A stretch of DNA of 64,000 nt from Limnothrix sp. BL-A-16 (GTDB lineage Bacteria > Cyanobacteriota > Cyanobacteriia > CACIAM-69d), in the NCBI GenBank assembly GCA_041937175.2, contig CP166615.1:2304001-2368000 (forward strand). The letters run 5' to 3'. Below the pieces are notes generated by a model. The model was not told where the DNA came from. It saw nothing but the letters and a program-made list of their open reading frames with translations, and searched no databases. A program made the position numbers and the translations under genes. Of this stretch, positions 18,360 to 60,865 are shown piece by piece (position 1 is the first letter of the stretch; each line of letters starts with the position of its first letter).

Positions 18360-21116
18360 GTGGGGCTTGTGATGGATTTTGGATCAATTCTGTCGCCCGA
18401 GAAATGGTGGCTGTTGCTGGTGACAGTGCTGTTGGGCATCAACACGGGGGTGATTTTGCCAGCTCAGTATGATTCATCGGCTCCTGCGCCTCGCAAGTGG
18501 TTGATCATTAGCACTTGGCTTTTGAACGGGATTTTGACAGGGTTGGCGGGGCTGTTGTTTTCACAGGAGAAGCCCAATTTTCAGCTTTGCCAAGGCTTGA
18601 CGATCGGGGGTGCGATCGTGGGTGTTGTGACGCTGGCGATCTTTTTTCGGGGCCCCAAGGCTGTAGTGACAGCGCACGATCGCCGATCGGAGTTGTTGGG
18701 GGTGCTGAAGGAGGAGTATGGCCAGCGGGAAACGGGGGCGGTGTTGGGCAAGTCGATCGCCCCTGTGCCCTTGGAGCCGCCGCGATCGATTCCCTTTCTT
18801 GGCAAGTTGTTCGGGTTTGGGCAGGAGCGATCACTATCGGGGCTGGATGACTTGCTCAAAACGTTTGATGAAGCCCAGCGGCAGGTGTTGATTTTGGGGG
18901 AGCCGGGGGCGGGCAAAACTACGCTGCTGGTGGCGTTGGCGAATCGGTTGGTGCAACGGGCGATCGAGGGCGATCGGGAACCGATTCCGGTGATTTTGGA
19001 GTTGTCGGCTTGGCGGGCGGGCGAGTCGCTGCCCGATTGGATTGTGGCGGAGGTGGCGGAGCGCTATCGGCCGCTGCCGGCCGCGCAGGTGGCGAACTGG
19101 CTGGCTACGGGGCAACTGCTGCCGCTGTTGGATGGGTTGGATGAGCTAAAGGATCGCCAGGGCGCGGCGATGGTGGCGATTAATGAGTGGGTGTCGCAGT
19201 CGCAAAAGTTGGCGGGGGTGGTGGTCTGTTGTCGGCGGGCGGAATATGACGCGGCGGTGGCGGCGGGCGACGCGCCTTTGGAAGAGCGGCTCAACAAGCG
19301 AATTGAGTTGCAGCCGTTGGATGAGGCAACGATTCGCACCCATTTACATGACTGCGAGCGGGATTTTTTATGGGAGAAAATTAAGCAAGATCGCGACGGG
19401 TTTCGCAAGTTGGCAGAGTCGCCGTTGTTGTTGGATTTGATGGTGGCGGCCTATGACAAACCGGGAAAATGGCAACGAGAAGCGCCGCGAAATCCTGATG
19501 ATCTAGCAGCCTATTATCTTGATTGTCGAGATCGTCTTTTAGATGATTATTTTGAAGTGCGGTTGCATAGTGTGCCGCATCCCAAATACAAACCAGCAGA
19601 TACGCGCCGTTATTTGGAATGGTTAGCGCGATTGATGCGCGATCGCAACCAAACGGAATTTTTGATTGAGTATATGCAGCCTGATTTGATTGAGGATCTA
19701 AAAGATCTGAAAGGCTATCGAGACTGCTTGGGATTTATAGCTGCAATACCTCTTGCTCTTGGCTCTTGGTTGCTTGGAGTAGTCCTCAATGAAGAATTTT
19801 ACGGACTCGTATTAGGTCTTGGGATTGGATTACAAGTATTTTGCTCGATGGAGATTCTCTATATTAGAATCTCAAAAACAATTTGGTCTGATATATCTCT
19901 GTTATTTCTTAGGGGACGAATCTTTATACTATTTATTTTTCAATCTTTCTTAAAAGGGGAGTTCATAGGAAATTATTTCTTTGCTCCCTTGCTCATCTTA
20001 ACTTTTTGTGGATATTTTTACGTATTATCTAGTGTTTTCAACATCGAAAACCAAAATCATCTTTCATATTTTCTCATATCAATTCCCTTTCTTTTTATAG
20101 TTGCAGTTGTTGCATTAGGTGCAATTCTTGAAAGTAATTCTTTATACTTAAAAAAGATTTCTTATAAAGAAACAAACGAAGGAACAATAGAGTCAAGAAA
20201 AAGTCTTGCTTTACTAACATTTTTATTTTTTCTACTGTTTTTTATAAATCAGTCAATTTCAACTATTTTTCAAAACAAGTTATCTTGGGAGGTGACTTTC
20301 TTTCATGATATTCCAATTGCATGTATTCTCTCAGGCTTAATGGGTTTTTATTACTTTGGTGGAATTCAGATATTTCAGAAAAAATTACTGTTCATATTTT
20401 TAAATAAAGCCAATCATATCCCCATTAACTATGATGATTTTCTTCAATATGCATCAGATAAGTTAAGTCTACTTAAGAAAAGTGGCGCATACTTTCGTTT
20501 CTATCATGAATTACTCAAGATTAATATGGCTAAGTTCAGTTCACCGGCTTGTCAGCTTGAAGCACCAAGAATATCTTTAAAGAGTAAGTTGATTGCTCTT
20601 CTTATTCAATTGATACTGATTTACTTGTTGATTTTCGCCTGCTTGAATATCAATAGTTATTTTGATTCAAGCAATTCATCATTTCTCAACAGTCTTGACC
20701 TAAAGAAAAGTGATATTGTTTTTCGTAATTCTATAATTAACTCAAGATTCAAAGTGCACAAGAACAGTCTAGTTCTAGTTAATTTTATGATCAAAACAGA
20801 GACTAATCACAGTCATTCCAATTTATCAATAGACCTCATTGGAAAAGTTGTTCAATTACCTGGAGATACAATCAATTTAGGTAATAAATACTTGTTTGCC
20901 ATAAACGGAAAGTCCATAAATGAGATTTATAAAGATGCCAAAACCTGGAGTTCACTATGTTTTGATGGAAAACTTAGAGTTCCTCAAGATTCTTACGTCG
21001 TTCTACTTCAGTGGGTAGACGAACCATGGCTGGTCTTAGTTAAAGAGAAAGACATCCAAACAAAAATTCTCTTTCGGATCTACCCGTTCGATCGCTTCGG
21101 GCCGATCGAGCCGTAA
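18360..21116 (+). CDS. Membrane-bound NACHT NTPase with multi-TM region and degenerate C-terminal S26 signal-peptidase-like domain
   Basis: Walker A GEPGAGKT, Walker B LPLLDGLDE, SPLLL helical motif, many TM helices, tail VVQLPGDTI...FRIYPFDRFG. Confidence 0.85.
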   Translation: MGLVMDFGSILSPEKWWLLLVTVLLGINTGVILPAQYDSSAPAPRKWLIISTWLLNGILTGLAGLLFSQEKPNFQLCQGLTIGGAIVGVVTLAIFFRGPKAVVTAHDRRSELLGVLKEEYGQRETGAVLGKSIAPVPLEPPRSIPFLGKLFGFGQERSLSGLDDLLKTFDEAQRQVLILGEPGAGKTTLLVALANRLVQRAIEGDREPIPVILELSAWRAGESLPDWIVAEVAERYRPLPAAQVANWLATGQLLPLLDGLDELKDRQGAAMVAINEWVSQSQKLAGVVVCCRRAEYDAAVAAGDAPLEERLNKRIELQPLDEATIRTHLHDCERDFLWEKIKQDRDGFRKLAESPLLLDLMVAAYDKPGKWQREAPRNPDDLAAYYLDCRDRLLDDYFEVRLHSVPHPKYKPADTRRYLEWLARLMRDRNQTEFLIEYMQPDLIEDLKDLKGYRDCLGFIAAIPLALGSWLLGVVLNEEFYGLVLGLGIGLQVFCSMEILYIRISKTIWSDISLLFLRGRIFILFIFQSFLKGEFIGNYFFAPLLILTFCGYFYVLSSVFNIENQNHLSYFLISIPFLFIVAVVALGAILESNSLYLKKISYKETNEGTIESRKSLALLTFLFFLLFFINQSISTIFQNKLSWEVTFFHDIPIACILSGLMGFYYFGGIQIFQKKLLFIFLNKANHIPINYDDFLQYASDKLSLLKKSGAYFRFYHELLKINMAKFSSPACQLEAPRISLKSKLIALLIQLILIYLLIFACLNINSYFDSSNSSFLNSLDLKKSDIVFRNSIINSRFKVHKNSLVLVNFMIKTETNHSHSNLSIDLIGKVVQLPGDTINLGNKYLFAINGKSINEIYKDAKTWSSLCFDGKLRVPQDSYVVLLQWVDEPWLVLVKEKDIQTKILFRIYPFDRFGPIEP

Positions 21117-23194: not shown

Positions 23195-23617
23195 ATGACC
23201 GCCGCCCTCAGCCCCGCCGATCGCCACAATTACCAAACCCTGCTGGCCGACTATGGCCCCGGTCTGCGGGCGATCGATGCCCTTGATCAACACGATGGCG
23301 ACCTGATCAGCGCCGTCGAAACCCTGTGGAATCAGTCAGAAACTCCCAGCACTTTTGGCAAGGGTCAAAAACTGTGGGAAACCCTGTTAAAAGTCTTGCG
23401 CAAGGAACTCTGTGGCAACGAAGGGGTGCGCGCCCAGTTTCAGGAATACACCAAAAATCCCGGCAGTGCGCCCCTGTTGACGGGCTTGATTGTGTCAGTC
23501 ACCACGGCGGCGGGTTTACCGATCGACCCAGCGATTTCCACAATTGTGGTGTTGTATTTGCTCAAAATCGGTCTGAATGTGTTTTGTGAATACACCGAAC
23601 CCAAACCAGAATCATGA
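23195..23617 (+). CDS. Cyanobacterial hypothetical protein (140 aa) with C-terminal hydrophobic hairpin
   Basis: 3' part of ORF 22805-23617 not overlapping the ABC-F gene; ATG at 23195; stop overlaps the next start (ATGA). Confidence 0.78.
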   Translation: MTAALSPADRHNYQTLLADYGPGLRAIDALDQHDGDLISAVETLWNQSETPSTFGKGQKLWETLLKVLRKELCGNEGVRAQFQEYTKNPGSAPLLTGLIVSVTTAAGLPIDPAISTIVVLYLLKIGLNVFCEYTEPKPES

Positions 23618-23973
23618 TCAGTCCATTACTCATCACTGATTCCATCACCCCCGCAACCTGGGAATTGCGATCGCGCCTGATCTGTCATCGTGAGCAAATC
23701 CAGGCGATCGCCGCTGACTACGGCATTAGTCACATGCGCATTTTCGGTTCCGTGGCCCGAGGAGAAGCAACCGCCGAAAGTGATATCGATTTTTTGGTGG
23801 AGATGGAACCCGATCGCAGTTTGCTCGATCGAATTGGCTGCATTCAGGATCTATCGGACTTGTTAAATTGCCCGATTGATGTTGTCACTCTCAAAAATAT
23901 CCGTGAGGAATGGCGCGATCGCATTCAACACGAGGCAATTTCACTGTGTGAAGTCCAACACGATCAAATTTGA
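23614..23973 (+). CDS. Minimal nucleotidyltransferase (MNT/MntA-like antitoxin family)
   Basis: IFGSVARGEATAESDIDFLV (GSx10DxD), L..LL...IDVV, EAI near the C-terminus. Confidence 0.9.
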   Translation: MISPLLITDSITPATWELRSRLICHREQIQAIAADYGISHMRIFGSVARGEATAESDIDFLVEMEPDRSLLDRIGCIQDLSDLLNCPIDVVTLKNIREEWRDRIQHEAISLCEVQHDQI

Positions 23974-23984
23974 TTTTGCTGGGG

Positions 23985-24350
23985 TTAATCGATCGCGTAG
24001 CCTGTATATTGTCGAACGGTGGGAGCATGGAAAGCGAGAACAATGTGATCTTTCGGAACTCCCAACTCTGTTAACTCATTGGCAATTCCACCTTCAATGC
24101 CATCATAGTGAATCCAGATTTTTTGGTTCCGAATTTCGGCATGAACTAGGCAACCATGCACTCTCTGATTCTCTTCCCAACCTTCTTGCATGAGCAGGAA
24201 ATGATTGCAATCTTGGCTCACCACTAAGTAGGTCACTACATTTCCATAGCGATAGGGCAACTTGGCATAGTCACCGAGAATTTTCTCTAGGAGCGATCGC
24301 CACTGGTTTAGGTTTTGTCCTTCTTGAGTGTCGAATGCTTCCATACTCAT
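23985..24350 (-). CDS. xisI: XisI-family protein
   Basis: GW...RVHGCLVH.EI...KIWIHYDGIEGGIANEL..LGVPKDHIVLAFH.P..RQYTGYA. Confidence 0.92.
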   Translation of the reverse strand: MSMEAFDTQEGQNLNQWRSLLEKILGDYAKLPYRYGNVVTYLVVSQDCNHFLLMQEGWEENQRVHGCLVHAEIRNQKIWIHYDGIEGGIANELTELGVPKDHIVLAFHAPTVRQYTGYAID

Positions 24351-24375
24351 GATTTGATAATAGTTCGGTAGTCCA

Positions 24376-24490
24376 GTAGGTTGGGTTGAGCCTCGCGAAA
24401 CCCAACGCAAGATCTGGGCTATGCGATCAATTACTTTCAAAACATAGCGTATTGATCGTGTTGGGTTTCGCACGGCTCAACCCAACCTAC
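24376..24490. repeat. GTAG-type REP doublet (REPIN-like long inverted repeat)
   Basis: GTAGGTTGGGTTGAGCC..GCGAAACCCAAC (24376-24406) inverted at 24460-24490, ending CCTAC. Confidence 0.8.
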
Positions 24491-24600: not shown

Positions 24601-27600
24601 ATGCCGACCATTCAGATTCGCGAAGTTGCTGCCGTTGTCGATGGGTTCACTGCTGAGGTGACGATCGCCCAGGATCTCAACACGAGCCGCGCCTATCCCG
24701 TCACGTTGCGGAATCCGTTTCAGCACAACGAAGAAGCGGATCTGGAATTCTTCTTTGAAGAGTGGTATCAGTTCCCGACGCTCGATCGGGAGCGGGCCGA
24801 TCGCGCCCGCCTGGCGATCGCTCAATATGGCCAAGAGCTGTTCGAGCAACTGTTGAAGGCGAATTCCGATGCCTACGCGGACTATCGGGACTTGCGGCGA
24901 TCGCAGGCCTTTGAGCGGGGCACGGTGCTGATCGAAATCATCGGCTCGCCGGAGTTTCAGGGGTGGCATTGGGAAGCCCTGCGCGATCCCGATTTGCCGG
25001 AACCGCTGTCACTGATGACCCCGATCGTCCGGCGCGACCCCCGGCGATCGGTTGCCAATCCGGCGCGGGTTGAGCCGTCTGGCTGGCTGAATTTGTTGGT
25101 GGTGACGGCGCGGCCCGGTTGGAGCCAGGATGTGAACTACCGGACGATTTCCCGGCCGTTGGTGGAGGCGATCGCCAATGCTCAGTTGCCCGTGAAGGTG
25201 GAGCTATTGCGGCCCGGCACTTGGGAAGCGCTCGATCGCCACCTGCAAGATGTCGGGCCGGGGTTCTATCACGCGGTGCATTTCGATTTGCATGGGTCGG
25301 TGCTGACTTACAAAGAAGCTAGCAAACTGCTCGATCGCCCCGCCCAAGCCAGCGGCCAAACCTTTCGGCGCGGTTATGGTTTGGGGGATTTGCCTGAATA
25401 TGACGGCTATCGGGCATTTCTGAGCTTTGAAGGAGAAGCGGCGGGCCAGTCAATTTTGGTGGAAGCGGCGGAGGTGGCAAATCTGCTGAAGACCCGGCAA
25501 ATTCCTCTTTGCATTTTGAATGCTTGCCAGTCTGCCAAGCAGATTAGCGGTGGCGAGGGGCCGGCGGCGGAAACCAGCCTGGGGGCCAAGCTGCTGGAGG
25601 CGGGGATGCAGGCGATCGTGGCCATGCGCTATTCGGTGATGGTGCGGGCGGCGGAACTGATGATGACGCGGTTCTATCAGGCGCTGTTTACCGAGCAGCC
25701 GGTGATGGAGGCGATTCGGTTGGGGCGGCGGGAGCTGTGGCAAACCAAAACCCGCCCCGGCCGGTTCAACATGCCGATCGAGCTGGAGGATTGGCTGTTG
25801 CCGGTGGTCTACAGTGGCGCGACGGTGAATTTGAATTTGCGGCCCCTGACGGCCGACGAAGAGGCGGCCCGGTGGACGGCGGAGGCCGATCGCGATCGCT
25901 TTGAGCCGCCGATCTATGGCTTTGTGGGACGGGACACGGACATTTTGGAGCTGGAGCGGCGGTTGTTGCAGCCCGATCGCAACGCTCTGTTGTTGCAGGG
26001 GATGGGCGGCACGGGCAAAACCACGCTGCTGCGCTATTTGCGCGACTGGTGGCAGCGGACGGGGCTGATTGAGCGATCGTTCTATTTTGGCTATGACGAG
26101 CGGGCCCACAACCTGGAGCAAATCGCCGCCAGCATTTTTCAGCAGCTTGATCCCGAGGGGTGGTTGCGGTTCCAGTCGTTCCCCTTGGCGGCGCGGTTGA
26201 CCAAGCTGACCCAACTGTTGCGATCGCGCCGCTATGCCTTGATTCTGGACAATTTGGAATCGGTGACGGCGGCGGCCCTGTCGATTCCCAACAGCCTGCC
26301 GGAGTCGGAGCAGCGGGCCTTGGCCCAATGGTTGCGCGGGTTGGTGGGGGGCAAAACCCTGATTTTGTTGGGGTCGCGGGGGGCGGAATCCTGGCTGGAG
26401 CCGGTCTATGGAGCCAATCGGCTGGGGTTGCGGGGGTTGGATCGGGATGCCCGCACGGAGCTGGCCCAAAAAATTCTGGAGCGACAGGTGGGCGACTCGC
26501 GCCGCATCGCTCAGATCAAGGATGATCCGGCCTTTGGGCAGTTGATGAAGCTGTTGGATGGCTATCCATTGGCGATGGAGGTGGTGTTGGGGAATCTGAA
26601 GCGCCAAACCCCCAGCGAAATTGTGGCGGGGCTGGCGGCGGCGGATGTGAATCTGGACAATCCGCAGGCCCAGGGCGACAAAACCCAAAGCATCATTGCT
26701 TGCATTGACTATTCCCACGGGGCGCTGTCGGCAGCGGCCCAGCAGGCATTGCTCTGTTTGGCTCCCTTCAGTGGGTTTATTAATTGCGATGGCAATTGCT
26801 TGGAACAGTATGCGGCGCGGTTGGCGGAGCAGCCGGCCTTAGCGGCTTGGTTGGGGGATTCGGGGGCAGAAATTTTGGCGGCGGCGGTGCAGGAGGCGGT
26901 GGATTGGGGGCTGTTGTCGCCGATTTCGCCGGAAGTACCGATCTTACTGACCATTCAGCCGACGTTGCCCTATTTCCTGAAGCTGAAGTTAGCGGAACGG
27001 GACAAAGAAACCCAAGCGGCGATTCGCAATGCCTTTAAGCAGCACTACATCGGCTTGGCGAATTACTACAACAATCGATTGCTGAAATCAAAGGAGCCAG
27101 ATCAGCGGCAATTGGGGATCTTTTTTGTGCGGCAGGAGTATGAAAATTGCTATGCAGCGCTGCAAATTTGCCTAGAGAAATTCGAGACGGCAGATATTTT
27201 CTTTTGCCTATTCCAATATTTGTACGTGACCCAAGATTGGCCGACTGCCAAGGCTTTGGCGGAACAAGTTCGGGCGGCCCATGCCCAATATCCTCCCGAA
27301 ATTCGTCAGGGCAAAATCGGCTTGGAAATTACGATGTCGCTCGATCGCCTGGCCTCTTGCCAATTGGAACTCAAGGACTATGCAGGCGCTCGGGCGGCTT
27401 ATTTGGAAGAACTCCAACAACTCGATCAACTACAAGGCGTTGACCGTCGCCAAATCTTAGCCAGCCAAGCCAGCACCTACCACCAGTTGGGAAGGGTTGC
27501 CCAGGGCTTGCGGGAGTATGCCGAAGCCCGCCGCTGCTACCAACAGGCCCTCGAAATCAAAATCGAGTTCGGCGAGTCTCCAGAGGAGAGGCTTCGCCAA

Positions 27601-28581
27601 CGCTACGAGCAAGCTGGCACCTACCACCAGTTGGGAATCGTTGCCCAGGAATTGCGGGAGTTTGCCGAAGCCCGCCGCTGCTACCAACAGGCCCTCGAAA
27701 TCAAAATCGAGTTCGGCGATCGCTACAGCCAAGCCAGCACCTATGGTCAGTTGGGAAGTGTGGCCCAGGAATTACGGGAGTTTGCCGAAGCCCGCCGCTG
27801 CTACCAACAGGCCCTCGAAATCAAAATCGAGTTCGGCGATCGCTACAGCCAAGCCAGCACCTACCACCAGTTGGGAATCGTCGCCCAGGAATTGCGGGAG
27901 TTTGCCGAAGCCCGCCGCTGCTACCAACAGGCCCTCGAAATCAAAATCGAGTTCGGCGATCGCTACAGCCAAGCCAGCACCTACCACCAGTTGGGAATCG
28001 TCGCCCAGGAATTGCGGGAGTTTGCCGAAGCCCGCCGCTGCTACCAACAGTCCCTCGAAATCAACATCGAGTTTGGCGATCGTTACGAGCAAGCTGACAC
28101 CTACCACCAGTTGGGAATCGTTGCCCAGGAATTGCGGGAGTTTGCCGAAGCCCGCCGCTGCTACCAACAGTCCCTCGAAATCAACATCGAGTTTGGCGAT
28201 CGTTACGAGCAAGCTGACACCTACCACCAGTTGGGAAATATTGCCTATCTACTGCGGGAGTTTGCCGCAGCCCGCCGCTGCTACCAACAGGCCCTCGAAA
28301 TCAACATCGAGTTCGGCGATTCCTATAGCCAAGCCAGCACATTCAATCAGCTAGGGTTGCTGTCTCAAGCAACGGAAAATTTCCCCAAAGCTCTCGATTA
28401 TTTCCTGCAAGCGCTGCAAATTTTTGCCCAATTTGAAGACACCCACCACGCCCAAGTTGTCCTCAGAAACATCGCCAACCTTTACCAACAAACCCAAGAC
28501 CCCAACATCCTCACCGCCGCCGCCGAAATCCTCGGTTGCACCCCCGACGACCTCGCCACCGCCTTCACCCAACAGCCGTAG
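24601..28581 (+). CDS. NLR-like protein: CHAT (caspase-like) protease, STAND/NB-ARC-like NTPase and TPR repeats
   Basis: CHAT dyad VHFDLHG and ILNACQS; Walker A GMGGTGKT; Walker B LILDNLE; GYPLAM; 40-aa TPR array. Confidence 0.92.
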   Translation: MPTIQIREVAAVVDGFTAEVTIAQDLNTSRAYPVTLRNPFQHNEEADLEFFFEEWYQFPTLDRERADRARLAIAQYGQELFEQLLKANSDAYADYRDLRRSQAFERGTVLIEIIGSPEFQGWHWEALRDPDLPEPLSLMTPIVRRDPRRSVANPARVEPSGWLNLLVVTARPGWSQDVNYRTISRPLVEAIANAQLPVKVELLRPGTWEALDRHLQDVGPGFYHAVHFDLHGSVLTYKEASKLLDRPAQASGQTFRRGYGLGDLPEYDGYRAFLSFEGEAAGQSILVEAAEVANLLKTRQIPLCILNACQSAKQISGGEGPAAETSLGAKLLEAGMQAIVAMRYSVMVRAAELMMTRFYQALFTEQPVMEAIRLGRRELWQTKTRPGRFNMPIELEDWLLPVVYSGATVNLNLRPLTADEEAARWTAEADRDRFEPPIYGFVGRDTDILELERRLLQPDRNALLLQGMGGTGKTTLLRYLRDWWQRTGLIERSFYFGYDERAHNLEQIAASIFQQLDPEGWLRFQSFPLAARLTKLTQLLRSRRYALILDNLESVTAAALSIPNSLPESEQRALAQWLRGLVGGKTLILLGSRGAESWLEPVYGANRLGLRGLDRDARTELAQKILERQVGDSRRIAQIKDDPAFGQLMKLLDGYPLAMEVVLGNLKRQTPSEIVAGLAAADVNLDNPQAQGDKTQSIIACIDYSHGALSAAAQQALLCLAPFSGFINCDGNCLEQYAARLAEQPALAAWLGDSGAEILAAAVQEAVDWGLLSPISPEVPILLTIQPTLPYFLKLKLAERDKETQAAIRNAFKQHYIGLANYYNNRLLKSKEPDQRQLGIFFVRQEYENCYAALQICLEKFETADIFFCLFQYLYVTQDWPTAKALAEQVRAAHAQYPPEIRQGKIGLEITMSLDRLASCQLELKDYAGARAAYLEELQQLDQLQGVDRRQILASQASTYHQLGRVAQGLREYAEARRCYQQALEIKIEFGESPEERLRQRYEQAGTYHQLGIVAQELREFAEARRCYQQALEIKIEFGDRYSQASTYGQLGSVAQELREFAEARRCYQQALEIKIEFGDRYSQASTYHQLGIVAQELREFAEARRCYQQALEIKIEFGDRYSQASTYHQLGIVAQELREFAEARRCYQQSLEINIEFGDRYEQADTYHQLGIVAQELREFAEARRCYQQSLEINIEFGDRYEQADTYHQLGNIAYLLREFAAARRCYQQALEINIEFGDSYSQASTFNQLGLLSQATENFPKALDYFLQALQIFAQFEDTHHAQVVLRNIANLYQQTQDPNILTAAAEILGCTPDDLATAFTQQP
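27466..28350 (+). repeat. Intragenic tandem array of 120-bp TPR-coding units (7 full plus 1 partial)
   Basis: Units start at 27466, 27610, 27730, 27850, 27970, 28090, 28210 and 28330; the first is 144 bp because of a 24-nt insert. Confidence 0.97.
27575..27598. mobile_element. 24-nt SDR-like mini-insertion at a HIP1 position
   Basis: GCG-AGTCTCCAGAGGAGAGGCTTCGCC-AACGC stands where sister repeats have GCG-ATCGC; internal TCTCC/GGAGA hairpin. Confidence 0.7.
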
Positions 28582-28726: not shown

Positions 28727-29947
28727 TCACGGGCGATCAACCCCAAACCCTTCCGCTTTCAGCATAGCTAAAGTTGCAATTGCTGCTTGGGTTTCTGCTT
28801 CCTTGATGGTCTTCCCTATCCCTTGGCCATACACTCGGTTCTGAAGCTTGACTTCTACAGTCCAAGGCTCCGCCCCTGGAACTGGACAGTAATCTACCAT
28901 GCCATATTTACTTGCATTTTCTGGCTGTTGTAGAAATTCTTGAAGAGCATTTTTAGGATGTCGGGCCGTTGCACCTTCGTAGCCCAGTTTATCGATCACT
29001 TGATCAAGCTTTGGCCAGAAGAATGCCTGAACTGCTGCCAAACCAGAATCAAGATAGTAGGCTCCAATCAATGCCTCAAAGGCATTAGCAAGAACTGAAT
29101 TCTTTTGACTAATTTTCTGATCACGCTTAAGCCCATTTCCTAGTCTCAGACAATCACCCAGATCCAATTGACTCGCAAAAAGCTCGAGTTGCGTATTTTC
29201 CACAATTCGAGATTTAATTTGAGTCAATTCTCCTTCGGTTAGGTACGGGTGTTTATTATGAATATACTCGGCCACTACCAATCCCAAAACGGAATCGCCT
29301 AAAAACTCCAGCCGTTCATTGTCATCGCCACTGCTTGGGTGTTCATTTTTATAAGACCTATGGGTTAAAGCCTGTTTCAGGAGGCTGAGATTCTGGAACG
29401 GAATTTGAGAAATGAGGCGATCGCACTGCTCTTGAAACTGTCGGTCTGCCTGATTGTTAGGGTTTAGACCCCATTGCTGCGCTTGGTTTTGATGACTCAA
29501 GGCTAGCAAAGCTTCATTTTGCTGGGTGACTACCTCTTCCAATAGAGGCGATCCGATCGCCTGTAGTAACCGACGAATGCTATCGAGCGATCGATAAACA
29601 TCTGCGGTGGGAAATTCTGATTCATGGGCCCACTGGTTACGAATTTCCTGAAGTTCATTGACTAGAACTTTGTCGCTTTTGCTTAATCGGTCTTTAAAGA
29701 CCTTGGTGTAATGCTTATCTAGAATTGTTAGTAAATTGGCTACATCTTCACTAATGATTTTGATGGGAGAATACTTTTTTAAAATTGGCTGGGCTGTTCG
29801 TAGCTTGGGTAAGAAATGTAGGGATTTTGTAGCCCAATCATCCCCATATTCTGTCTGCATGGCTTCCTGAATGAAAGGAAACAATCCCTGGCGCAAAAGC
29901 TCTAGGCCACGGGTAATCGTTTCCTTTCCCCAGTTTTGGTTTGACAT
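28727..29947 (-). CDS. Swt1-like HEPN domain fused to ribonuclease III and a dsRBD
   Basis: ELQEIRNQWAH (Rx4H), ALTHRSY, NERLEFLGD, ANAFEALIGA, dsRBD HPKNALQE...G.GKTIKEAETQAA. Confidence 0.88.
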   Translation of the reverse strand: MSNQNWGKETITRGLELLRQGLFPFIQEAMQTEYGDDWATKSLHFLPKLRTAQPILKKYSPIKIISEDVANLLTILDKHYTKVFKDRLSKSDKVLVNELQEIRNQWAHESEFPTADVYRSLDSIRRLLQAIGSPLLEEVVTQQNEALLALSHQNQAQQWGLNPNNQADRQFQEQCDRLISQIPFQNLSLLKQALTHRSYKNEHPSSGDDNERLEFLGDSVLGLVVAEYIHNKHPYLTEGELTQIKSRIVENTQLELFASQLDLGDCLRLGNGLKRDQKISQKNSVLANAFEALIGAYYLDSGLAAVQAFFWPKLDQVIDKLGYEGATARHPKNALQEFLQQPENASKYGMVDYCPVPGAEPWTVEVKLQNRVYGQGIGKTIKEAETQAAIATLAMLKAEGFGVDRP

Positions 29948-60518: not shown

Positions 60519-60865
60519 GAGCCTGTCGTCATTTCCTGAGATCAGGCAGAAACGATTGATTTCCCATGCCCCAACCGTCGTAACAAGGGGCTTAAGCCCC
60601 TTGTCTCCCACGATCCGCTAACGGTGGAACCAGGGTTTTGGGTTAAAAGACGACAAGCCCTAAGCCCCTTGTCTCCCACGATCCGCTAACGGTGGAACCA
60701 GGGTTTTGGGTTAAAAGACGACAAGCCCTAAGCCCCTTGTCCCTCACGATCCGCTAACGGTAGATCTAGGATTTTGGGTTAAACGACGACAAGCCCTAAA
60801 GCCCCTTGTCCTCCACGATCTGCTAACGGTGGAACCAGGGTTTCAGGTAATTTGACGACAACCCC
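60519..60865 (-). mobile_element. Nested/tandem family A MITE array (one arm once, the other arm four times, 68-69 bp each)
   Basis: Units at 60593, 60661, 60729 and 60797, each running from TAAGCCCCTTG (TAAAGCCCCTTG in the fourth) to the TIR GACGACAAGCCC (GACGACAACCCC in the fourth). Confidence 0.85.

Follow-up and report, generated by a model that had tools for sequence, protein, structure and literature searches.

Caspase-Like Proteases and Candidate Partners

Cyanobacteria are rich in caspase-like proteases, and substrates are known for very few of them. Among the closest described systems (here and below as given in the available portions of the cited texts), EACC1 is cut by caspase-Avs12 and forms pores (PMC12642450), EACC1 and EACC2 are alpha+beta domains (PMC7159879, PMC8195603), and caspase-fused STANDs are already in print (PMC13581612, PMC12642450). 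CHAT proteases are reported to cut between Leu and Gly (10.1101/2021.06.07.447441), Met and Lys (10.1101/2022.08.17.504292), or Arg and Ser (PMC9457339), while the available text of 10.1101/2023.06.23.546230 gives no cut site. In addition, all-in-one CHAT-NOD-repeat genes with 80-90% repeat identity are described from cyanobacteria and actinobacteria (10.1101/2020.01.06.895854). Here, we analyzed a stretch of 64,000 nucleotides (the window) from Limnothrix sp. BL-A-16 (contig CP166615.1, positions 2,304,001 to 2,368,000, forward strand), which carries a gene for a CHAT-STAND-TPR receptor-protease (the receptor). An initial annotation, made from the window alone, had read this gene as a ligand-gated protease for defense or programmed cell death, its substrate unknown. 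We found that an unannotated small gene 1 kb upstream, which we call S, recurs beside the receptor across cyanobacteria, and S is now a strong candidate for that substrate.

Linkage of S to the Receptor

Among 401 genomes of the cyanobacterial class, the receptor was matched in 56 (threshold E 1e-60, with two candidates scored per genome), a patchy distribution that is also seen within genera. With a threshold of about E 1e-11, which excluded weaker matches that came mostly from a paralogue family, S was found in 71 of these genomes; it occurs in 46 of the 56 receptor genomes vs. 25 of the 345 others, an association overstated by the overall Fisher value because kin are not independent. Within one genus, g7 (33 genomes), nine genomes have the receptor, nine have S, and six have both. 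The two genes share a contig in 35 of the 46 genomes and are within 10 kb of each other in 34 of these 35 (29 within 2 kb, assuming a receptor gene of 3.7 kb). These 34 close pairs cover 13 families and 24 genera and occur in four orientations (12 downstream-opposite, 11 upstream-opposite, 9 downstream-same, and 2 upstream-same).

Other searches gave a partly similar picture. S was present in six of eight genome loci found via the receptor (two of the eight duplicate genome searches), and both plasmid matches of S (2/2) lie beside CHAT/TPR genes. In 80 metagenome loci found through S, the neighbor was the receptor in 25, the receptor's repeat type only in 13, a KAP/iSTAND pair in 2, and another CHAT in 1, and the receptor is visible in 10 of the 17 loci of at least 10 kb. 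The distances among S proteins and among STAND domains correlate with a rho of 0.36 (32 pairs) or 0.19 (all 36), values from which host ancestry has not been removed.

Gene S and Its Predicted Product

S encodes 140 residues and is mostly labeled hypothetical in public records. No Pfam family was matched at E <0.009 among 60 homologues, NCBIfam and the sequences of solved structures gave no match to S, and the ESM Atlas returned unnamed clusters only; nor was S found in phage records or viral contigs. The gene is under purifying selection, with ratios of nonsynonymous to synonymous substitution rates (dN/dS) of 0.05-0.12 against three close relatives. A structure model based on a 60-sequence alignment (predicted local distance difference test, pLDDT, 85; predicted template modeling score, pTM, 0.81) is all-helical, with eight predicted helices, three of them in an N-domain (residues 1-47), then a linker modeled at low confidence, and a C-domain predicted to end with a pair of hydrophobic helices (92-105 and 112-125). 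Fold searches with this model returned nothing in Foldseek at E 0.001 and no clear match (best Z 5.5). Among homologues, the N-part is net acidic in 69/69, hydropathy over 19 residues peaks at 1.9 or more in 121/121, and Cys73 and Cys131 are invariant, distant relatives included. The hydrophobic C-domain is the best-conserved part of S, and in some distant relatives the same C-domain stands behind an unrelated N-domain.

The variable linker holds a candidate cut site. Of 43 receptor-linked S proteins, 39 have Phe, Tyr, or Met at position 54, and the motif [FYM][GASDN] is present in the linker of 37 of the 40 with a full linker, vs. 25% of background windows. S proteins linked to C14 caspases have G[DS]LG at the linker instead (4/4), and paralogues linked to TPR-CHAT genes have Arg plus a small residue in several cases, not all. 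The resemblance of the S linker motif to the known CHAT cut sites is no more than suggestive of cleavage there.

A complex prediction of the CHAT region (1-420) with S, run with alignments, scored 0.00 and was counted neither for nor against an interaction, and a promoter/terminator scan was at chance level. Contigs assembled from one RNA run over the receptor gene and S are 5-13% divergent from the window, and they carry no expression information. In a quick version of the S tree, context labels do not cluster, C14 excepted.

Architecture and Conservation of the Receptor

All motifs quoted in the initial annotation lie in the single receptor frame, as the open reading frame and the motif positions confirm: VHFDLHG at residues 226-232, LNACQS at 306-311, GMGGTGKTT at 467-475, LILDNLE at 547-553, and GYPLA at 654-658. 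The proposed effector-STAND-repeat layout with C-terminal TPRs was borne out by Pfam, which matched CHAT (PF12770; residues 188-385, E 2e-18, 67.1 bits against a cut-off of 24), NB-ARC and NACHT (residues 441-627, E 1e-6, barely over the cut-off), and TPR_12 (E 2e-54); an N-terminal effector and C-terminal superstructure-forming repeats are both present. The catalytic His and Cys had been described as intact, and they are: across 118 aligned homologues, which are the 120 listed minus two long fusions, H227, H231, C309, D550, R593, and the GxP motif are invariant (118/118), and K473 of Walker A is retained in 117/118. The receptor has the Walker A, Walker B, sensor Arg, and GxP features of a STAND protein. 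A single-sequence structure model of residues 1-960 reached a pLDDT of 37, too low to judge the His-Cys geometry.

NB-ARC proteins usually have His in the winged-helix MHD-like motif. At this position the receptor family has Gln (Gln786 here, 117/118), and a distant clade has His-Pro; this substitution may alter resting-state control, and STAND membership is unaffected. Residues 1-160 are conserved in the family, and the Pfam CHAT model reaches into this region in two relatives; by analogy with Csx29, which has a pseudo-protease half (10.1101/2022.08.17.504292), the region is probably the pseudo-protease half of the CHAT fold. An ESM Atlas search with these residues gave unnamed clusters, save one isolated match.

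In a homology search with the receptor, 1148 of 7999 scored candidates passed a threshold of E 0.001. Its nearest named homologues, at 83-92% identity where a name is given, come from Limnothrix; many others, at about 50%, come from cyanobacteria more widely. The full-length receptor is present in 4 of 31 relatives, and in this genome it is one of 16 CHAT matches. Among the families that PADLOC v2.0.0 covers, no model matched its protease or STAND part (the matches were to the TPRs only, and none was to an Avs model), and sequence searches of solved structures gave no match for the CHAT-STAND part. An archaeal metagenome-assembled genome also carries a homologue with 49% identity to the receptor (L041:9923-13496; G and L numbers are our labels for genomes and loci); this homologue is split within its first 140 residues and has no S nearby.

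Variation in the TPR Sensor

A DNA unit of 120 bp, repeated in tandem 6.2 times with 91% matches, makes up the core of the TPR sensor. Across 30 arrays with 128 units, mean DNA identity of the units is 0.82 within arrays vs. 0.62 between them, which is consistent with concerted evolution. At unit positions 4, 7, 14, and 36, the nonsynonymous proportion (pN) exceeds the overall synonymous proportion (pS), with bootstrap intervals above 1 in a site-wise test that carries no correction for 40 tests or gene conversion; positions 4, 7, and 14 would share one helix face. The number of units also varies, being 7, 5, 6, 4, 0, and 8 in six close orthologues under a strict pattern. In comparison with L021, the N-terminal, CHAT, and STAND parts show a nonsynonymous rate dN of 0.03-0.08, and the repeats approach saturation; the contrast is milder with L143 (0.02-0.08 vs. 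0.10 in the repeats). These hypervariable positions offer a handle on the evolution of specificity in bacterial NOD-like receptors (NLRs).

Other Genomic Contexts of S

The receptor is the most frequent neighbor of S, but not its only one. Among 74 S loci fetched, 43 are beside CHAT-STAND genes, 9 beside TPR repeats only (mostly at contig ends), and 4 beside a C14 caspase. The four C14-linked S genes form one clade and immediately precede a caspase whose His and Cys are intact, with no TPR gene of the receptor's type nearby. In 12 loci of this caspase subfamily, S is directly upstream in four, and another unknown gene is in three. The product of the latter, an unannotated protein of 360-392 residues, adjoins the C14 caspase on its upstream side, the position of S in other genomes, has no Pfam, PADLOC, or NCBIfam match, and is a candidate for a second caspase substrate.

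In some close relatives, a protease-less pair consisting of a KAP ATPase and an iSTAND-TPR protein replaces the receptor at the same chromosomal site (L046 and L047 vs. L023), and this pair carries the receptor's TPR unit type. L047 retains a receptor remnant upstream of the KAP gene. Likewise, either the receptor or the KAP/iSTAND pair was observed beside near-identical S genes in L044 and L045 vs. L116. These swaps suggest module exchange through the shared repeats. As a control, the protease-less iSTAND-TPR gene with the same repeat type was surveyed, and S is present in only 22 of 70 genomes that have it.

A distant S paralogue family (hhalign probability 96%) is present in 109 of 281 cyanobacterial genomes, including this one. 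Its common form stands alone, usually with no protease nearby and with no annotated function. We inspected 63 distinct paralogue loci, 43 plus 20 hand-picked extra or low-scoring copies. All eight paralogues lacking the common Gln-Glu-Pro-type linker (8/8) lie tail to tail with a TPR-CHAT gene, within 460 bp, vs. 2 of 55 of the common type that abut such a gene. The catalytic His motif is present in all eight linked CHATs, mostly as HF[SCG]CHG, and because of this shared form they may have a single origin.

Proposed Mechanism and Alternatives

The architecture, catalytic conservation, linkage, selection, and repeat variation are directly supported, and the reading that fits them best, which we favor at somewhat less than an even chance, is a ligand-gated protease with S as its latent substrate-effector acting on membranes. 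The large protein would be autoinhibited until a foreign ligand, which we expect to be a phage protein, binds the TPR array, where homogenization would keep the repeats of one gene alike and a few helix positions would diversify; by analogy with related families, nucleotide exchange in the STAND domain and oligomerization would then switch on the CHAT protease. The protease could cut S in its loose linker, most likely after Phe54, which would remove the acidic three-helix N-domain and free the C-terminal domain, and the hydrophobic hairpin thus released might act on the membrane and kill or arrest the cell. A defense or non-self role (the initial annotation predicted defense or programmed cell death) has gained indirect support from the patchy distribution, plasmid carriage, toxin-antitoxin-type neighbors, and diversifying TPRs. 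We propose more tentatively that S founds an undescribed, all-helical family of caspase-activated effectors on three kinds of protease (CHAT-STAND-TPR, C14 caspase, and TPR-CHAT), with the linker as a protease-specific cleavage code; at this locus, S would be the executioner in a bacterial inflammasome of one step, with a TPR sensor that undergoes reshuffling in the manner of fungal NLR repeats.

Several observations weigh against S being a membrane-acting substrate of the receptor. The hairpin helices in the model are only about 14 residues long. Even a profile search found no S in 10 of the 56 receptor genomes, one of which consists of a single contig, and 23 of the 34 linked pairs are on opposite strands, so there is no conserved operon. 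Conversely, S is often without the receptor: of the 74 fetched loci, 7 are beside the protease-less KAP-ATPase and iSTAND-TPR pair and 11 beside nothing recognized, and no partner is seen in 39 of the 80 metagenome loci, including 7 of the 17 that are at least 10 kb long. S without an adjacent receptor is still under purifying selection (dN/dS 0.07-0.22), a range that includes G278 vs. G068 (0.11), two genomes that are each a single contig and gave no match to the protease. The linker motif is retained in orphan S (7/9) and KAP-linked S (6/6) and is, therefore, only suggestive, as it may be structural or ancestral. With a standalone paralogue present in 109 of 281 genomes, S does not look like a pure toxin, and its association with each of the three protease types may have arisen just once.

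Some of these points would be expected if S regulated the protease, as an inhibitor, pseudo-substrate, or adaptor (compare securin and separase), and the real targets were host proteins. S is found next to proteases of three caspase-fold types, is tolerated and conserved on its own, and has a widespread standalone paralogue in genomes rich in CHAT genes, such as this one. We nevertheless regard a regulator as unlikely, as motif-intact receptors in genomes without S indicate that S is not a required antidote, and the most conserved part of S is its hydrophobic C-domain, which is also found behind unrelated N-domains. It is less probable still that S is a landmark at an insertion hotspot or a co-transferred passenger, with the receptor alone acting on conserved host proteins. 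The many orphan S genes, the variable slot and the accumulation of toxin-antitoxin-type genes beside S, and the non-independence of kin in the genome counts would fit such a scenario, yet the flanks of S vary among lineages while the receptor is the recurring neighbor, their proximity survives four orientations and plasmid transfer, and the S and STAND distances are correlated.

A further alternative, to which we give rather little weight, dispenses with cleavage: S would work with the TPR/STAND part as a guarded bait, a co-sensor, or a directly recruited membrane effector. Here, the occupation of the same site by either the receptor or the protease-less KAP and iSTAND-TPR pair with the same repeat type would fit, as would the position of S, conserved there, directly upstream of the KAP gene in L134 and L157. 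However, only 10 of 56 iSTAND-TPR genomes without a receptor match have S, C14-linked S lacks a nearby TPR gene of this type, and the swaps may stem from recombination between shared repeats; L047 has a receptor remnant upstream of its KAP gene. We consider it improbable that the pair is a developmental or stress-signaling switch rather than an immune one, despite the precedent of the cyanobacterial CHAT protease HetF, which cuts the regulator PatU3 (PMC9457339), the interspersion of non-defense with defense STAND clades (PMC13581612), and the lack of a PADLOC match to the protease or STAND part. The patchy occurrence of the receptor even within genera, the presence of the pair on plasmids, the varying TPR copy number, and the excess of amino-acid change at four positions would not be expected of such a switch.

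Neighboring Genes in the Window

Between S and the receptor, two half-systems adjoin (23614-24473), an MntA-type gene without its toxin and a XisI gene without XisH; XisI is flanked by short dispersed repeats. The contents of this slot differ in relatives, with MntA and a following gene in L143 and a XisH-XisI pair in L021 and L142. MntA, XisI, an ABC-F gene, and Ribonuclease III were considered as partners and rejected, as they are not recurring neighbors in the distant loci inspected. Coordinates of the main features are listed in Table 1.

Table 1. Positions of the receptor, gene S, and associated features. Positions refer to the window unless a locus or genome label is given.
Feature	Position	Strand	Remarks
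Gene S, unannotated partner, 140 residues	23195..23617	+	Candidate substrate and latent effector
S N-domain	23195-23335	+	From structure model
S linker	23336-23365	+	Phe54-Gly55 at 23354-23359
S hydrophobic hairpin	23468-23587	+	
MntA-type nucleotidyltransferase antitoxin gene, no toxin	23614..23973	+	Variable insert, not part of the system
XisI gene, no XisH	23985..24473	-	Variable insert, not part of the system
CHAT-STAND-TPR receptor-protease gene	24601..28581	+	Single open frame, 1326 residues, one copy in genome
Receptor N-terminal region, residues 1-160	24601..25080	+	Family conservation; CHAT-model extension in two relatives
CHAT protease core	25162..25755	+	His231 codon 25291-25293, Cys309 codon 25525-25527
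STAND NTPase	25921..26961	+	Walker A 25999-26025, Walker B 26239-26259, GxP 26560-26574, winged-helix IQP motif 26953-26961
TPR sensor	27469..28500	+	Core is 120-bp tandem DNA repeat, 27601-28340
Standalone S paralogue	G000:C1:2152448-2152801		Same genome, outside the window
Protein of 360-392 residues upstream of C14 caspase	L226:397-1482, L227:400-1482, L228:2311-3486, L229:1990-3069		Other genomes

Three other features of the window were noted. A low-G+C stretch downstream of the receptor (28727-29947, minus strand) encodes a fusion of an N-terminal Swt1-like HEPN domain to Ribonuclease III, and this region has an 81% DNA match in G001. Upstream of S, a gene at 18360-21116 (plus strand) encodes a 918-residue NACHT-type protein with a C-terminal S26 signal-peptidase-like domain and hydrophobic segments that are probably membrane-spanning; its second half is low in G+C, and the gene is absent from that site in L021 and L143. 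A 68-bp tandem repeat at 60593-60843 (3.7 copies, 91% matches) could be a short CRISPR-like array.

Comparison With Known Protease-Effector Systems

The receptor-S pair resembles EACC1 and caspase-Avs12 (PMC12642450), in which a small non-enzymatic gene neighbors the gene for a STAND sensor with a fused caspase-like protease. As in EACC1-type modules, S has a candidate removable N-terminal part and a hydrophobic C-terminal part, and one small gene occurs with varied sensors. S differs in that its model is all-helical, rather than alpha+beta like EACC1 or a beta-barrel like Pepco, and in that many S genes do not run in the same direction as the protease gene. Bacterial gasdermin (10.1101/2021.06.07.447441) is similar in that one effector family is found beside CHAT and C14 proteases, some with TPR/NACHT, and also has a hydrophobic P1 residue followed by Gly and a conserved cysteine. 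By contrast, S is only 140 residues long, is predicted to be helical, showed no sequence or fold match to gasdermin in our searches, and would have its removable part at the N-terminus. Csx29-Csx30 (Craspase) and HetF-PatU3 likewise join a CHAT protease to a dedicated substrate that is cut once, which for S is a prediction; the present system lacks a CRISPR effector, a sigma factor, and a membrane anchor, and the substrates in those systems are regulators of a different size.

With regard to the receptor, the effector-STAND-TPR order is that of Avs and other defense STAND receptors (PMC13581612), although no PADLOC Avs model was matched and the sensor is a short array of near-identical 40-residue repeats; a search of the supplements of PMC13581612 found no usable label for the receptor family. 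Both its architecture and its repeat identity are like those of the fungal and bacterial NLRs with highly internally conserved TPRs in 10.1101/2020.01.06.895854, where the available text names no S-like partner and proposes the site-wise diversification of bacterial repeats that is measured here. PADLOC model PDC-M35B, of similar length to S, gave weak matches (E 8e-5 to 7e-4) in four of five S proteins tested; these scores are marginal, no PDC-M35 partner model was found in the scanned neighbors, and the name PDC-M35 did not appear in the main text of the PADLOC paper or the other full texts searched. The available text of PMC10907252 does not mention S, and a literature search, mostly without subscription papers, found no description of the receptor-S pair; S could be listed in the supplements of PMC12642450 and the PADLOC preprint.

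S shares a conserved protease neighborhood with the described protease-activated effectors (EACC1, Pepco, CATASP, gasdermin, and others), has no profile match to their families in Pfam or NCBIfam, and is unsupported as a member of any of them; our best reading is that the receptor and S work by analogy like EACC1-Avs12 or gasdermin-CHAT. If S kills via membranes, it would add a helical effector to the ten protease-effector modules in PMC12642450, and if S is what the receptor cuts, the pair would constitute a new protease-triggered defense switch. The question of substrates becomes directly testable now that a candidate with a predicted cut site is in hand and naturally occurring pairs are available for three classes of protease. 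Compared to these known systems, the receptor architecture alone has been described before, and what is new is the linkage of S to the receptor, together with the measurements of its repeats.

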